Source: Schmidtea nova (lineage: Eukaryota). From it: a stretch of 64,000 nt of DNA. A program made the position numbers and the translations under genes. The stretch lies in assembly GCA_044892505.1 (NCBI GenBank), contig CM097883.1, positions 80,848,001-80,912,000 on the forward strand, read 5' to 3'. Of the stretch, positions 7,086 through 47,390 are shown piece after piece. The notes beneath the pieces are model-generated. The model had not been told where the DNA came from. It saw only the letters and a program-made list of their open reading frames with translations, and ran no database searches. The stretch's first letter is position 1. Each line of letters starts with the position of its first letter.

Positions 7086-8690
7086 ACCGTTATCCGATAT
7101 CATATAATGACCATATGTCAGACTTGTGTTCTTTCCCACCCAAACCATTTTCTCATCATTTTTTTGTAAGAGCAACTTTAGTCGCTTTAAAACTATTTAG
7201 TTTGTGATTATTGACGCCAATGCGAAATTGATTCACTTTAAGTATTTTTAACGCATGATGTTTTATATATCTGTATCCTTCAATGTTACTTTCTGTCTTT
7301 TTTGTATTCATATTTCCAAAAAAACTATAACTTTATAGTAGAAGAAATACCCACTCTTCGTAATCATTACTCTTACTTTAGTCTTTAAATATTTTTATTT
7401 TATAACGGGTGGGTCGGTTATAATTTGGAGTGTCCAAAAAATTGTCATTGACTATTTCAGGTAAATGAACATTTTACTTACATTTTTCAACTCCAGAAAG
7501 AAAGTATCTGTATGCCCTACTATATTAATTTACAATTAAATTGTTCACAATATCTCTGCAAGTCAATATATTGTAATTTATACATTCTAAGTTTAGAAAA
7601 ATCAAGAACAAATTGGTCAAAATAATTTATGTTATCTAAACACACAATATAGATATTAAATAATCTGCAATCTTAATATTTTTTTGAATTGTTTGAATGG
7701 ATGCATTTGTAAATTATTTTGTTGCTGAATTACATAATCGAAAATCCATTCTTCTTATTTATATTTTCAACTGTATTTCCATAAATACTATTGTTCAACA
7801 ATTTGTAGCAATTTCTATCCAAAGTATTTGTGGATTTTGCCCTAACTCAGTGTTTGTATCACATATTTCTTGAAAATGGATTCTTGTTTAAGCAGATTAC
7901 ACGATGAACTTCAATTAATTTTACTCTAAACCGAATATACATTTGAAGTATAACGTAATTCACGACATACTTATTTTTTGTGTATTGAGTAAACAATAAT
8001 TTCTCAAATTTTAATACATACGTATTTTCTGCATCATCTTTAAGTTCAACTACATAGAACAGCCACAGAAAAGTTTCTGAATCGAAATTTATACATTCTT
8101 CCAATATTTTATCAAAATTATCGAATTCCTATTCCAGTTCCCCACATGGTAATTTCTGACTTAAATTCCCAAACATATTATTATTTATATCAATATATAA
8201 AAGCTCAATATTTTCATCGGATAACACTTGATGTTTGTTCACAAATTTTAAACCACCACGAATCCCTCCCTCAAAGAAACTAGACCTTTCCATTTCTTTT
8301 ATCAACTCTTTGTCTTTCTAATAACATTAGAGTGGATGCCCATACAAATAATTCTAAAGATATTCAATGGTTCTAATATGTTATGATTTTGATTTGGCTC
8401 TTAATTGCCGAAAAAGTCAGTAAGTACACATTCAATTTCCAATACACCATGATAGAGTCCAATAATGGTTTACAATTAATTTACAATTCATCCTCTGTAA
8501 CTCCATCCCAAAGTGCAGGTATTTTATGTAGTTTTCTGACTGGTGACTTAATTATACAGAAATATTCGTTTTTAGTAGACAATAGTTCGACTGAATATTG
8601 GTTAGTTAATAGTAAACTACTCAATGTCTTAACCACTTTAACTAATGAGTCATTTACGAATTGATGAATTATTAAACCATTTTTTCAAAA
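7086..8690 (-). pseudogene. Heavily decayed protein-primed type B DNA polymerase (Polinton/Maverick-like)
   Basis: Minus-strand fragments LYIDINNNMFGNLSQKLPCG (motif A-like), KYVVNYVILQMY..KLIEVHRVI, DFSKLRMY..GHTDTFF (motif C-like) and C-terminal KVAL..LTYGHYMI, in the expected order. Confidence 0.75.
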
Positions 8691-38537: not shown

Positions 38538-39050
38538 TTATTCAAACAAAATCCAGTTTTTGAACAACAGAAGTAATCTTAAATTTATGGAGAAAAACAA
38601 ATAAAAAATAATTTCAACTTCTTTTTCTTGGGTATCTGTTTCTATTGTATTTGTCTCTATTGGCACTGTTTTATCGTATAAAATTTGCCACCCGTCTTTA
38701 GATTGTATCCATGGCATCCCCTCAGATTTATATTTTATCAATATTTGTTCTGCTACTCGATTTACTTGTTCATCGGCATTTTTTATCAATATATTTTCTG
38801 ATCTATAAATGAGATATGCTAATACTGTTAGTACTCTATCCTGATTTATTCCTGTTCTGAATAATATTTTTGAGACCGCTTTTTCGTTAACAACTTCCAT
38901 CACTAAGTTATTTATATCTGTTTTAATTAATTTAATTTGATTCCCTGTGTTATTTTCTAAAGATAATAATTTTGCGTTTGGATATAGCCTTAGATTTACC
39001 GTTTTGATTAAATCTATTATTACATATATATCTTCATTATTTGTTGACAT
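38538..39050 (-). CDS. Orphan ORF of ~145-170 aa, unknown
   Basis: Open frame from ATG with globular-looking composition. The C-terminus runs into the dispersed repeat. No motif recognised. Confidence 0.35.
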   Translation of the reverse strand: MSTNNEDIYVIIDLIKTVNLRLYPNAKLLSLENNTGNQIKLIKTDINNLVMEVVNEKAVSKILFRTGINQDRVLTVLAYLIYRSENILIKNADEQVNRVAEQILIKYKSEGMPWIQSKDGWQILYDKTVPIETNTIETDTQEKEVEIIFYLFFSINLRLLLLFKNWILFE

Positions 39051-40622
39051 TTCATTTGAAAGTTCTTAGTTTATCGGCCATCTTCCTACTAGAAAAATTA
39101 TTTATTGTTTCAGATTATTGAAATTCATTTTCATCTTGTTTTGTAGCCTCTAAACTTTATCGATTATAAGATTCTATTCCCTAATTCAACCCAGATCGAT
39201 ATGAAAATGAATCTTTCATGATGGTAGATCCCAAATCGAGTCAATGTGCAGATGATTTACAATTGTTATATGCAAATCTGAGGTGATTTCAACGTTTAAT
39301 TAAACTGGTACAGAATTTTGGGTTGACTCAATTCAAATTGACTAATGGTGATGTCTTCTGTGGTTCCGGTTTATGGATTTATTTCGAGCTAATGCTCCCC
39401 ACTGATTCGTGATATTTATAGTTCCTTTCTAAGTAACTTATACACATTTCTGTATTTGATTTAAATTACTCATGCTTATTTTCCTTCTTTCGTGGATTTT
39501 ATCGAGATGGGATTTCAAAAAACTTACTCTAACAATTGCAAGTTAATGTTTTCAAATAGAATTTAGGGTGTTACGGTAAGGAGGAATCATGGATGTGCAT
39601 ATCACATGGTTGTGCTTGACTGAAATGATTTGTCGGCTCAAAAAATGAAATTTTCGAGAAAAATAAAATTCACCCAAGTAGATATCCTCAAATAAGTATG
39701 ACCTGACTTTATTTTTTTGATTTTTATTCATTGAAACGGATTTTTCTTAGTTATACCATGTGTTTGACTTGACTTAGATTTAGTGATGAAATAAATCAGT
39801 TTTCTTATGTATTAAATTGACTTTTTACGTTGAATTAGAATTTATTTTAGATTCAATTTTTCTATAAAAGAAATGATAATGCCTGTATAATTTTATTAAC
39901 TGAACCGTTCATTTTCTTAAGTACTATAATTATTGAAGTTGTGTAAATTTCTGTAAGTAGGGTAATTAATGATATAGGATATCATAGAATGTAAGCTAAT
40001 TACTGCTATAGGGTGTTAAAAGTTGCAAGTAAGATAATTGATACTATAGGATATTATGAATTGTAAGATAATTTATGTTGTCGGATGTTATGAATTGCAA
40101 GTAGGATATTGAATGTTATGGGTGTGAGTAATAATTTTTATATCAAATTTACGTTTATAAAATACGATAGATAATAATTTTTATAATAGAAATTTATATT
40201 TATAAAATAAGATGGATAGTAATTATTACAATAAAATTTATATTCATGAAATAAGACGAATGATAACTCTTACAATAAACTTTATACTCATAAGATGATT
40301 TAGAATAATAATATTTTTTCTGGAAAAAATAATAATGCTTAAAATTATATACTACGATCAATTTTTATTGACCAGAGAACTAGAATTCCTTTTTGTTGTA
40401 AAACAAATCACCAATTTTGGTGTCAACGTTTCATGCAGCGAATTTTATAGAAAATTTTTCGTAAGCTGTAATGCATGGAAATTCATAAAAAATTCGAGTA
40501 CGCATATGCTATGAGTTAGAATTCAATCAAATTTTTAGAAGTAAAATTCAAATTCATTTCCGATTTTGGCGGAAAAACAATATAATCAATTTGTCAGGTA
40601 TTTGGATTCAAAAATATAAAAT

Positions 40623-43237
40623 ATGCCTCAATATAGGCAATTAAAGATTAGCAATTCTTTGAAATCGTCAACATCTGATTTATTCAAACCATTGCAAATG
40701 GATGAAAAATTTAAAAATACCATATTAAACTACAGTATACGCAATATCATAAAACCAGGTATTCGAGGTATCCTAAGGCGTATTGGGGTTTTAAATGCAA
40801 ATACTTAGGATGCGTTTGCATTACAAGTTGGAACTTCCGTTGGAAAATATTTAGGAGCGTTAAACGTTAGTAATTATGTTGATCCACTGAAAACTTCTAT
40901 TAAAGACCATTTAAAACCGTATGGAGATCACGAAAGATTAGGTTACAATTCATTATCTAATCACGATGGCTATTTAGAAATTACAGATTTTTATAAACAT
41001 GAAATAGATTTAAATTCATTCAGTATTTATCAGGACAAAACCTTACAAAATTATTATGAGCCTAACCGTTTTAATGATCATAATGACCTATTTGAAATTA
41101 TGGAAATTAGGATCCCAGGCATTAGTTTATATAATGGCCTCAGACTACTGGAAAAACTATTATTACGGAATGGCAATAAATATAGTGATATGGTAGAATT
41201 GTTAAACTCAGACCAGTTAAATAAAGGCTTTCTAGCTGAAAATCCAGGTTTATTAAAACAATTAAAAGAATCAAGCGAAAACATAAAAAATAAAAAACTC
41301 ATGTCAATAATATGTCTAAAATTATGCAGCAGAATTCGAAAGTATTAAATATGTTACAAAAATGGGAACACAATACACCTGACTTTCGGAATGTATTACC
41401 AAAATTGCTACATATATACTCAAATATATGGTATCATAAAAATAAATCCGAGAACACTTATATGATAAGAAAATAAAAAACGATCCTTTTACTGACCAAT
41501 CGTTACATATACTTAAACATAACAGTGTAAATAGGTTACAAACCCGAGAAGAAATTTATAAAAAAATTGACAGTTATCTACGTCTTTCTCATGATCAAGA
41601 TCCTGATACTTCTGTACATCCCAAATAACCTAAGCCGCAAGATATGAAGAGGCGAGTTAATTACATATAATTAATTTTTTGCGATATTATTACCACAATA
41701 ATCATCATAATAGTGTTACCCATACTGAATGGAAGCAGTTAGCTAATAATTTAATACAACCTTATGATAAAATAGTTAGTAAAAAGAACATGGACATGTC
41801 TACATTAAATCGATTTGATCATATTAAAATGACTGAACATTTATTGGACACCCATGCTAAAGGGGTAAAGAAATATAGGCACTCAAATACAAGTATAAAA
41901 GCGTTTGATAATCTATTTGGGAGCAGCAACAAGGAGATTTCAGGCCACAACTCGGAAATGACAGTCTTGAATTCATCAGTACCAATTGCGGAGCTAGTTG
42001 CATCAGTACCACCGAACAAGGCGAATGGTATAATATTCCAGTCGAATATCCTTACCCTCATATCATGTATGGTAATCCAGACTCATGAGCTGCTATGCAA
42101 AAATATTTGCGGTGGAAACCGAAAAATATACATTTTGAAATATTCAATATTCAAGGTGTTGGGGAAACCTCTCCACAAAATTTTAATGGATTAGAAAATC
42201 AAGTTGAAATGTTGGTTCTCAGAGATAAAGCTCATATCTATGGCCCGTGTACTATGCCAGAAAATAAAGCAAAAGCGTTTAAAGACCTTTTCTTAAATGA
42301 AGCATTTTCGCATAATGGTTATAATGTAAATAATCAATTATCTAAATTAACTCCCCAGAAATTATCAAAAGCAGGTTGGATATATTACCCTGAAACTTGT
42401 CCAGAGGTTAAAATAGCTAACTGTAATACAGGAGAAACAATAGAATACAGTTATGAGTCTAGCAAAGTAAAATATCCTCGTTATATTGTTGAGTGAAGGA
42501 ATCAACATTATGATCTTAAAACTTTTAAAGACAATGATCCATTGTATTGGCATAGATGGGATTATTTTAATTGCAAAGTAGTGAAACCATTCTCATATAT
42601 GGGCGGACTAGACAGTCGGACTATAAATACTATCAATAGAACGGTTCCATTCCCTTTGAAGATACGCTATCACAAATGGGCTAGAACGTGGAATGAGAAG
42701 CTTAAACGACCAATGTATAAACATGGAGAAACGGAAGTTAGTCTTCATCACAAAACTGTCCCTACGGATAAAGATTTAGTCGATGACTATTTTACCCCTA
42801 AAAGATTATATCTGGATGAATTTTTCAGTGTAAACGCAGCCAAGGATATTTCGGAACATAATCCCATGTCTCAATTATTTATAAAATTAAATACTATGAT
42901 AGGACCTCAAGGTAATCAGATCAACCTTACTTGTACTTTTAATTGGAAAATATCTTATACTAATGAAATGTACGGGAAATTACCAACTATAAATATTCAT
43001 CAAATATATGATGTTACAGATAGAACTGCTCAGTTTAATCAGCCTTAGCAACCTATAACAAAATGGATGACACCGTCTATATTTTATTGTATGCATGTGT
43101 ATTACTGGATTAGAGATGAACTATCTAAAGATGATTATTTATTATCCATGATCAAACATAATGCAGCAAGATTCAAGATACCATCTAACATTTTGTATCA
43201 TATGCAAGCAAGATTAGGTCAACCTAATCCCTTGTAA
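40623..43237 (+). pseudogene. Endogenous parvovirus/densovirus-like capsid (VP) gene with several stops and frameshifts
   Basis: PDS*AAMQKYLRWKPKNIHFEIFNIQ parallels parvoviral [47 protein letters not shown] parallels PPPQILIK..VSVEIEWEL. One frame from ~41910 to 43237 with stops at 42086, 42494 and 43046. AATAAA directly after the final stop. Confidence 0.75.
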
Positions 43238-43612
43238 TAAAAATAAACAAAATCACTAAACAGATTAGAAGTAACGAAAATGTGAATTATACTGTCCAAA
43301 ACAATGCTGAAAATATAAGAATTGGTTTAGACAAACAAATCTTATTTTATGACTAGGATATCCCAATTTTAATAATAATAATATTAATAATAATTTTTTT
43401 AAATTACTTTTGGCATTTACATGCCTTAAAAATTTTACTTTTATTTGATTCGGCACTTATGTGCCATCCATTTTTACTTGTCAAAATAGCGGAAATTTTT
43501 TTTTCAAATTTTACTTTTAGAGGCAGTTATGTGCCTTTGGAGATTTATGCTGAATGCCGACTTTAGTCAGCATTCCAACAAAATTATTATTTTATCCTCA
43601 TCTCCAAAATGT

Positions 43613-44413
43613 GGCGCCCCCCCCCCCAAAACATCAACTTCTAGAACATCAACTACTAAAAAATCAACTTTTAAAACATCAACTGTCAAAAACATCAACT
43701 GACTAAAACATCAACTGTCTAAAACATCAACTTACTAAACATCAACTGCAGTTAATAATAATTAATAATAAATAATTAATATTAATAATTAATTAATAAT
43801 TAATAATAATAATTAATAATAATTAATTAATAATAATTAATTAATAATAATTATTAATAATTATTAATAATAATTAATAATAATTAATAATAATTAATAA
43901 TAATTAATAATAATTAATAATAATTAATTGATAATAATTAATAATAATTAATAATCATAATTAATAATTATTAATTAATTATAATTAATTATTAATAATT
44001 ATTAATAATTAATAATTAATAATAATAATTAATAATAATTAATAATAATTAATAGTAATTAATAATAATTAATTAATAATCATAATTAATAATAATTATT
44101 AATTAATTATTAATTATTAATTAATTATTAATAATAATTAATTATAATTAATTATTAATTATTAATAATTAATTATTAATAATTATTAATAATAATTAAT
44201 AATAAATTATTATTTAAATTGTAATGAAATTCAATGTTTTATATTGTTGATGTTTTAGATTGTTGATGTTTTAGCCAATTGATGTTTTTGACAGTTGATG
44301 TTTTTGACAATTGATGTTTTTGACAGTTGATGTTTTAGGGTAAAAAGTTGATGTTTTCGTAGTTGATGTTTTAAAAGTTGATGTTTTAGAAGTTGATTAA
44401 ATGGGGCGACCCG
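43613..44413. mobile_element. Foldback/Mutator-like non-autonomous element
   Basis: 9-bp TSD CCAAAATGT (43604-43612 / 44414-44422). Arms are tandem AAAACATCAACT modules in inverted orientation around an AAT/ATT microsatellite core. Confidence 0.88.
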
Positions 44414-45756: not shown

Positions 45757-46429
45757 TAATCAAAATAATTCTAACAAATACCAAAGAATAGTCAATTGCA
45801 ATATCTTTGTGGCTTAAACGTTTTGAATTTCAATCCAAATCCAAATTCGAATTCATGCGAATAAACAATTCATCTCATCCACATAGCAAGCGAAACCAAA
45901 ATACATTAAATTCTTCCTTATCCAAACAGCATTATCGAGACTAAACTTTAATTTAACTTCCTAAATCCAAATCGAAACTAATTCAAACTATTCTAAATCT
46001 AAAATACTCAATTGGAGTATTCAAACAAACCAATCTAAAAATCAATTCTCCAAATCCACTATTAACTCAGAAATTCAGAAAATCCATTATTAGACAACTA
46101 AAAGAATTCGAACTAACGCGCACACAGACGCGAGCTTCTAATTAGATTCATTGCGCACACAGACGCGAACTTGAAATATAAAAAATAAGCGCATACAGAT
46201 GCGAATAGAAAATAAAAAAAATGCACCACAAATAGCCAAAGTTTGCTCAGGCAAACTTTGGCTGAAACAATACTTATTTTATTTATTTATTTTGTTCATT
46301 ACTACTTTTACTTATTCATTTACGATTCATACTTATTATTTATTTATTTTTGTTTTATTCATTGTATAATTATTTTCTTTAACTTATGTGAAGTTGGGAG
46401 CACAAAAGAAACATAAAACTTGAAATAAT

Positions 46430-47390
46430 AATTTAAAAATATAATAATAATAATTTGAAATAATAATTTGGACTTGAGCTTCCTCGACTCTTTTCTTGGA
46501 TAAAAAAATTCCTTTATAATTGGTTTCATACACCATTTGACCACATTTATTTACCGCTTGTTTCCTAATAAATCTCATACCATCGTCTAATAAAGTTGAC
46601 ATCAATACAACTGGAATTTTTCTACTTGTCAATGGAGTAATTCTGATTGTCATGTCCGGTTTTGCCTCCACATGCAAATTTTCCGGCCTTTCAACAAAAC
46701 GCATTGTTTTTAGATGTATTAGATTACATAGATTTGTTTTAACTACATACACTAAAATTGATTCTCCTGTTTGGCAGCTAGACTGCTTCATATTATAGAA
46801 TGGATGCGTTTGTAACTTGCCTGTATCGTCATCAAAGGCTCCTTGGAATTCACTCAATTCCGTCAAATATCTTCCATCACAACAACTTGATCAATAATTT
46901 TTCCATTCATTTTGTACGGTTCTCCTTTACAATCCCCATTAGCTCTTATTGTCCCTTTTTCGATAAATTGATTCTCGTATCGCATAATTCAATTTAGCTT
47001 TCAATTTAACCTCATGGCTAATTTTCACTTCCCCTGTTTGAAACGCAGCCAAGCAATTTTCTGGGTTTACATCAACTGGCCTTGGGATTGAATACATTTT
47101 AATTAGTGATGTGTGACTCCATTTGCCACAATAAAACACAAATCTCGTTCTTTTAACAATGCACTCTCTTACAACTGCATGTCTAAAGCCGGATTCTTGG
47201 TATACATGATACTTTACATCATTTTCCACTGTTAGACTCATTGGGTGTGCATCAGAACATTCTGTCATGTTCTCCATGGAATAAATCTTCCCCATTTTGG
47301 TTTGAGAACAATCGTACGCAATTAAAGATGTCGTTTGAGTCGTAATCACACATAATATTATGATAATTTACCTTTTCACAATTTCGTTGA
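46430..47390 (-). pseudogene. Viral/retroelement envelope glycoprotein N-terminal part (chuvirus-G / class III-like), frameshifted and truncated
   Basis: Hydrophobic IIIILCV then AYDC..MTEC..RECIVKRTRFVFYCGKWSHTS..PENCLAAFQTG..GDCKGEPY..DQVVV..NKCGQMVYETNYKGIFL. The Cys spacing matches chuvirus-type glycoproteins as recalled. Confidence 0.7.

Follow-up and report, generated by a model that had tools for sequence, protein, structure and literature searches.

A decayed parvovirus-type capsid gene in Schmidtea nova, probably derived from an older sub-lineage of a multi-copy endogenous ssDNA-virus-like family

Introduction

What kind of virus left a parvovirus-like capsid gene, with no replication gene beside it, in the chromosome of a planarian? 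The question is raised by positions 40623-43237 of the window, a 64,000-nt stretch of the Schmidtea nova genome (contig CM097883.1), in which a first-pass annotation saw the fossil of a divergent invertebrate parvovirus. One half of that description survives comparison with relatives in the same genome: the gene appears to encode an endogenous parvovirus-type capsid. Membership of the Parvoviridae is unsupported for the family as a whole, since the relatives carry a CRESS-type Rep and a helicase-only NS1-like ORF. The joint best explanation, to which we assign a probability of about 75%, is that the window copy stems from an older sub-lineage of endogenous ssDNA-virus-like elements that are present in many copies and probably belong to the planarian PEVE/PIVE group.

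The window copy is a truncated pseudogene

Comparison with relatives shows that 40623-43237 belongs to a single decayed plus-strand gene whose homologous reading is split over five pieces by at least four frameshifts, with internal stops and one deletion. The earlier reading of one plus-strand ORF of about 870 codons is thus right as to the gene and wrong as to the single frame. The first surviving piece of the N-terminal half (40551-41309, plus strand; stops at 40617 and 40806) corresponds to approximately residue 170 onward; it is 44-46% identical in amino acid sequence to the close copies L061 and L062 and matches the long ORF of locus L051 at E 7e-10. A second piece lies in another frame (41366-41455, plus strand; 47% identity over 30 aa to L062, linked E 5e-7), and a third in the remaining frame (41515-41673, plus strand; stops at 41626 and 41668; 36-42% identity to L060 and L062). 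The half ends at 41670-41917 (plus strand) with a conserved His-rich motif, after which approximately 100-110 nt are absent at 41917/41924 relative to the close copies L059, L060 and L061; in these copies, the missing stretch contains a Met and the Gly-rich linker. The parvovirus-type jelly-roll capsid domain then occupies 41915-43237 (plus strand) and is 41-44% identical to uninterrupted relatives. It is interrupted at 42086, 42494 and 43046 ahead of the terminal stop at 43235, and all three internal stops fall in columns that are invariant among the seven uninterrupted relatives aligned, which bears out the earlier suggestion that the TGA at 42086 occupies a conserved position.

The gene does not begin at the ATG at 40623, as homology extends upstream to approximately 40551-40582, equivalent to residue 170-185 of the roughly 1040-aa ORF of relatives; the first 170 or so codons, which bear a phospholipase A2 (PLA2) domain in relatives, have been lost. 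A dispersed host repeat outside the element (40127-40558, unstranded; many genomic matches at 69-85% identity, ending at 40553-40558) abuts the truncated 5' end and explains this loss. At the other end, AATAAA does follow the stop, as had been noted, and occurs twice (43236-43241 and 43242-43247, plus strand). The second occurrence is invariant in all five close copies aligned; similarity to all relatives stops there, and no terminal repeat comes after it or was found elsewhere in the window or within 10 kb on either side. Likewise, tblastn (E<=0.05) detected no NS1-like helicase, Rep or PLA2 in the 64-kb window plus 10 kb on each side.

The locus is chromosomal, lying within a 456-Mb sequence. 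Contigs from three runs (three samples of one study, which may include the source sample) together span 39082-43175 at flank-level depth, with no differing letter inside the gene; two contig records bridge the left junction, and cover ends at 43175, short of the right junction. Chromosomal integration, previously only proposed, is thereby corroborated. Assembly error as the source of the breaks was rejected because the covering contigs, from this one study and exclusive of the right junction, show neither difference nor gap. The window copy is a pseudogene: a dead, 5'-truncated structural gene.

The capsid domain

Direct searches with pieces of the window matched no Pfam capsid family and no PDB sequence, and the parvoviral signal therefore required profiles and a structure model. 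A widened capsid profile matched parvovirus VP2 chains (E 3e-6 to 4e-4; 11 distinct sequences). The structure model spans 41909-43237, each stop being replaced by X, and its confidence is low (mean pLDDT 52, pTM 0.54). Compared with 48,161 chains, its best 20 matches are all parvovirus capsids (Z 9.7-14.7; best match at rmsd 3.8 over 235 aligned residues), followed by a circovirus at 8.0. Foldseek agrees (E 1e-7 against PDB, 7e-11 against BFVD), and the Atlas places the capsid with parvoviral capsids at 0.95-0.96, with recognition below its threshold (1846). Sequence identity to solved parvovirus capsids is only 7-17%. On the strength of the VP2 profile match and the fold searches, the parvoviral jelly roll seen earlier in the C-terminal part (41915-43237) holds, and this part is predicted, from a low-confidence model, to be a parvovirus-type single jelly-roll capsid domain. 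No parvovirus subfamily can be named because vertebrate and invertebrate parvoviruses tied in the fold matches.

Beyond this genome, a profile built from the window capsid part and seven relatives gave seven matches among 1.84 billion protein representatives (E 1e-17 to 5e-4), all unnamed. These environmental capsid proteins, P0004-P0010, resemble the window family in matching the capsid profile over that range of E values, at 17-27% identity, but differ in their length of 410-529 aa (one is a 183-aa fragment), in having neither PLA2 nor the long N-terminal part and in their location on 1.5-4.7-kb contigs. A word-indexed protein search with the capsid returned no match, and no related locus was present in the viral contigs (five) and metagenome contigs (one) scanned.

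All three far copies listed (L051:5934-6311, plus strand; L050:3713-4090, minus strand; L008:2292-2669, minus strand) have an alternative-frame ORF of 125 aa that overlaps the first part of the capsid domain, and the frame is also open in the window at 41924-42194. Its position resembles that of the AAV assembly-activating protein, though it may be a by-product of codon conservation.

The long structural ORF

In relatives, the capsid domain is the last part of an ORF of approximately 1040 aa, which comprises a PLA2 domain, about 480 aa without a known family, a conserved Met and Gly-rich linker, and the parvovirus-type jelly roll. Several structural frames of the far lineage (defined below) are open over 1042-1066 codons. 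The PLA2 domain that opens the ORF matches PF08398 above the cut-off (E 2e-12); it is also present in the window's own sub-lineage, in L062 at E 4.7e-4, below the cut-off, and in L061 by tblastn only. The long N-terminal extension of the window gene is the region that follows PLA2, in the middle of the single ORF of relatives, and a Pfam scan of this region of about 480 aa found no family. The proposal that its first 400 or so codons are a separate gene was rejected, given their homology to the middle of one long ORF.

An intron behind the PLA2 part was also considered, as four close copies break near residue 170-185. It is unsupported, the interrupting sequences being mutually unrelated and L061 aligning with L062 across much of this gap. 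Within the capsid gene of L061 lies an uninterrupted prenyltransferase-like ORF (L061:5435-6541, minus strand; PF00432 E 6.5e-71), which is probably a retrocopied host gene that was inserted there.

Relatives in the genome

The 1.25-Gb genome holds at least 28 capsid, 58 short-helicase and 81 Rep matches. The surroundings of 38 loci were viewed over 10 kb each; these are not a random sample, 20 being drawn from the capsid list and 18 from the helicase lists (six of them chosen since both helicases occur together). The most frequent layout has Rep on the left, capsid on the right and a short helicase convergent on the capsid (13/38 loci), with one further locus in a rearranged form of it. Rep and capsid only are found at four loci, and at one (L072) the short helicase converges on Rep with the capsid beyond. 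Five loci carry both helicases, convergent, with no capsid in view; eight carry Rep only (including L075, counted here as its helicase match consists of 28 residues ahead of the start codon), five capsid only, and one (L059) a capsid with a convergent helicase. The full unit contains Rep, the divergently oriented PLA2-capsid ORF of about 1040 aa and the short helicase of 222-224 aa, which in L051 lies 29 nt from the capsid. Relative to the short helicase, the Rep and capsid block is thus found either way round. At L055 and L066, partial second units adjoin complete ones, as expected from integrated concatemers, and a palindromic repeat junction at L056 (7920-8427) is likewise as expected.

In capsid trees, the copies fall into a far lineage (41-44% amino acid identity to the window) and the lineage to which the window copy belongs (L059-L064, 70-85% nucleotide identity), with support of 96/96 and 98/98. 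The two are joined at 99/97 against the environmental proteins, though long branches make the outer joins unsure. All seven copies examined in the window's lineage are broken. None of these seven has a Rep beside it in the 10-kb views and the window, and the Rep of this sub-lineage is therefore inferred from the sister lineage. A convergent short-helicase remnant does accompany the close copy L059 and is 45% identical to the helicase of L051.

Two helicases of different type

Aligned Rep sequences conserve WSFNI, HLQC and YATK together with GKT, DD, IFCIN and RR, stretches that we take to be the named rolling-circle and SF3 helicase motifs respectively. The Atlas places Rep with those of Cressdnaviricota at 0.97. 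Rep has no Pfam match above the cut-off (below it in 6/9), no PDB match and no match in a word-indexed search of 5.8 billion proteins. From its motifs, it appears to be of CRESS type, with two domains that unite rolling-circle nuclease motifs and an SF3 helicase. An alternative-frame ORF of 217-249 aa overlaps the nuclease half of Rep (L051:3148-3897, minus strand, and many other Rep loci); it is conserved at 37-90% and matches no Pfam family.

The second helicase is short, with 204-224 aa counted from an invariant Met and no nuclease domain in any of the nine copies aligned. It matches Parvo_NS1 (E 1.8e-13, above the cut-off) and AAV Rep40 (E 7.6e-8), and is closest to parvoviral NS1/Rep40; its profile gave three weak, unnamed matches in a word-indexed protein search. 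A TATA-like motif within the terminal repeat lies upstream of it. The first-pass annotation had found neither NS1 nor PLA2. This is accurate for the truncated window copy and its surroundings but does not extend to the relatives, which carry PLA2 and an NS1-like helicase ORF; among the short-helicase matches in the assembly counted above, all nine that were aligned are helicase-only. In AAV, the helicase-only proteins Rep40/52 drive packaging, and the post-sensor-1 hairpin has been named as the capsid docking module in a study of vertebrate parvoviruses only (PMC12713660). In the short helicase, a 6-residue gap coincides exactly with this hairpin (hairpin 2), which argues against AAV-like packaging.

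Terminal repeats

At 6 of 14 far loci, a unit of 5.6-6.1 kb lies between a pair of inverted repeats of 190-238 nt (81-98% identity); at the other eight, no repeat pair lies inside the 10-kb view. One end is predicted to fold as a T-shaped hairpin (-40 kcal/mol, z -8.1), and the 508-nt junction at L056:7920-8427 folds as a long palindrome (z -8.7). These are from five candidates selected after self-alignment, so that the fold scores are not blind; one further candidate scores through an AT run, and the remaining two did not outscore shuffled sequences. At L059, a 183-nt repeat with hairpin arms lies on either side of the short helicase. The terminal inverted repeats point to a linear form. Their ends are ragged, and no target-site duplication was evident by eye in five aligned copies.

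Selection and route of insertion

Estimates of dN/dS are 0.11-0.24 for the window capsid part against four close copies, 0.36 for the N-terminal half against L061, 0.05-0.10 in five far capsid pairs and 0.07-0.29 for the short helicase. In two Rep pairs, synonymous sites are saturated. Divergence under purifying selection (dN/dS 0.05-0.36) indicates that the genes were still functional as the copies diverged, and that most copies are separate insertions.

Could the window hold a canonical densovirus or hamaparvovirus that has simply lost its NS1? The parvovirus-type fold, the PLA2 of relatives, the predicted hairpin ends and the 5.6-6.1-kb units all suit such an origin, but it is very unlikely: every one of the nine NS1-like ORFs aligned begins at the same Met and has no nuclease domain, the window capsid clusters with Rep-bearing copies (99/97), and the sole helicase seen beside a close copy, that of L059, is of the short type. 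A separate matter, compatible with the family assignment, is whether the window copy arose by reverse transcription of a capsid mRNA, a possibility contained in the first-pass annotation that we consider unlikely. In its favour, the window copy loses similarity to every relative at the conserved AATAAA (43247), beyond which four close copies continue into a 3' region that they share; the 5' part is also absent, and the window has no terminal repeat. Against it, no poly(A) tract follows 43247, although erosion may have removed an old one; a dispersed repeat borders the 5' end; and close copies carry repeats and helicase, from which DNA insertion appears common in the window's sub-lineage.

Spread within the genome as a Rep-driven transposon that no longer needs particles would account for the many copies, the terminal inverted repeats, the tandem units in L055 and L066 and two copy pairs at 94-96% nucleotide identity, and PIVE is treated as a virus-derived transposon in the Repbase-based description given in the text of Liu (2011, PMC3198968). 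It is nevertheless improbable: most copies are 17-27% apart in nucleotide sequence with synonymous sites near saturation, the capsid is under strong purifying selection, the unit contains no transposase or integrase, and neither the ragged repeat ends nor the five aligned copies lacking a visible target-site duplication favour it. Highly improbable, finally, is a dependence on Maverick/Polinton elements as helper or insertion site. Several copies do adjoin Maverick genes, and a Maverick family in the same genome has a PLA2-integrase ORF that shares 50% identity over 100 aa with the capsid PLA2. Mavericks are, however, very abundant here, and their genes appear in the 10-kb view at 13/38 element loci against 8/20 random loci (Fisher p 0.78), so that a preference for insertion near them was rejected as background proximity; moreover, a PLA2 common to Polintons and parvoviruses is known from earlier work (PMC8502044). 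Separate captures of viral DNA remain the preferred reading for the family.

Comparison with known systems

VP1 of most, though not all, members of the Parvoviridae bears a PLA2 motif. Densoviruses, hamaparvoviruses and AAV share with the family a jelly-roll capsid, an N-terminal PLA2 and a Gly-rich linker, and the short helicase is closest to AAV Rep40. The linear 4-6-kb parvoviral genome with terminal hairpins may have its counterpart in the repeat-bounded 5.6-6.1-kb units, one of which has a predicted T-shaped hairpin. Unlike them, the family has no NS1 with nuclease and helicase in one chain, its initiator is of CRESS type, the N-terminal part reaches about 580 aa, the capsid is highly divergent from those solved and the helicase is without post-sensor-1 hairpin 2. 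As read from the ORFs of the relatives, which offer no single NS1 uniting nuclease and helicase, the family does not appear to be a canonical parvovirus. Judged by NS1 it probably stands outside the Parvoviridae, yet its capsid and ends probably work like those of a parvovirus.

PHV (NIH-CQV/PHV) is a hybrid of Rep and parvovirus-type capsid. The family Rep resembles those of Cressdnaviricota in its two domains with rolling-circle and SF3 motifs, whereas the family departs from both Cressdnaviricota and NIH-CQV/PHV in having terminal repeats, PLA2, a further helicase gene and copies in the chromosomes of an animal. Genomes of Cressdnaviricota are covalently closed circles with a nonanucleotide stem-loop origin. 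Bidnaviridae combine a parvovirus-derived capsid with a foreign replication gene, and the family is like them in this respect, but its replication gene is a CRESS-type Rep and no protein-primed polymerase lies inside the repeat-bounded units; polymerase matches near element loci are outside the units and at background rate. The available text of PMC13141889 gives no gene detail on PHV, and that of PMC8502044 mentions Bidnaviridae.

The closest likeness is to PEVE, from Girardia tigrina, and PIVE, from Schmidtea mediterranea. PEVE contains internal repeats; the far lineage differs in having none between capsid and helicase, which are 29 nt apart in L051. Both orientations of the Rep and capsid block relative to the short helicase recall the large and small segments of PEVE. 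By the description in the text of Liu (2011, PMC3198968), these elements resemble the family in their terminal inverted repeats, their integrated copies and a pair of helicase genes that are unrelated to each other. One of the pair is close to CRESS Reps, beside which PIVE_3p falls together with the PEVE large segment; the other is close to parvoviral NS1, with PIVE_1p and the small segment placed beside parvoviruses. That text names no PIVE or PEVE capsid, although Figure 5B may mark a capsid or PLA2 domain, and the available text of PMC6186406, PMC5618006, PMC9241645, PMC13055364 and PMC13141889 gives none for these elements. Protein searches with the family's ORFs returned no named PEVE/PIVE protein among their matches. 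The family probably fits the PEVE/PIVE elements, a match drawn from their description. In the open-licence PMC literature and bioRxiv (without supplements; subscription journals excluded), no account of this capsid or gene combination was found.

Proposed biology

A fuller picture, offered tentatively and at somewhat less than even odds, is of an unclassified animal ssDNA virus lineage that is chimeric across two phyla. It would combine a linear hairpin-ended genome, a CRESS-type Rep, a parvovirus-type PLA2-bearing capsid and a separate helicase-only NS1 remnant on a module at either genome end; it would have exchanged PLA2 with resident Mavericks and entered the germline many times; and PEVE/PIVE would be true capsid-encoding viruses, with initiation and packaging split between helicases of different origin. 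The source, known here from chromosomal copies alone, would be a linear ssDNA virus whose ends form hairpins. Rolling-hairpin replication would be driven by the CRESS-type Rep, whose nicking and resolution of the hairpins is fairly likely. With slightly greater confidence, the long ORF would yield two products, a PLA2-bearing minor protein that serves in endosome escape and, from an internal Met, a major capsid protein of about 460 aa; a start at the Met before the Gly-rich linker agrees with the 410-529-aa environmental relatives. The short helicase could be what remained of a parvoviral NS1 once the initiator had been replaced, and might serve as a Rep40-like packaging motor or, with the same modest likelihood, as an auxiliary replication helicase. 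Replicative DNA or concatemers would then have been captured at chromosome breaks on many separate occasions.

On this proposal, the family would supply a capsid for the long-unclassified planarian PEVE/PIVE elements and add an animal example, beside bidnaviruses, of replication-gene swapping in ssDNA viruses. It would also provide a natural example in which origin nicking and helicase motor, the two jobs of parvoviral NS1, reside in separate proteins of different ancestry; as the short helicase is without the reported AAV docking hairpin, which helicase a parvovirus-type capsid needs for packaging becomes testable. Copies at graded depths of decay would form a dated record of repeated infection of one host.

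Neighbouring elements

Mavericks have undergone a very large and recent expansion in this genome, with 19,262 packaging-ATPase candidates genome-wide and approximately 100% identity in all 150 that were scored. The family with the PLA2-integrase fusion ORF is represented at L109:4704-6038 and L111:4717-6114, and at least 100 PLA2 matches fall outside the capsid family. The Maverick at L036:4964-9999 carries a TBP-like gene (PF00352, E 7e-15). Within the window, a remnant of a Maverick protein-primed polymerase lies at 7104-8666 (minus strand), and a 175-aa ORF 1.5 kb upstream of the capsid fossil (38541-39065, minus strand) has a weak Bcl-2 match (E 7.6e-4, below the cut-off). Downstream of the fossil, two arrays of 15-16-nt units in opposite orientation (43628-43748 and 44234-44397) flank an AAT-rich satellite (43752-44212); contig depth here is very high, and the arrangement looks like a foldback repeat. 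A fragment of a Monjiviricetes-type fusion glycoprotein (46942-47367, minus strand, with the next ORF at 46387-46890, minus strand; PF24664 E 2.4e-17, above the cut-off) constitutes a second endogenous viral remnant, 3.7 kb downstream of the capsid fossil.
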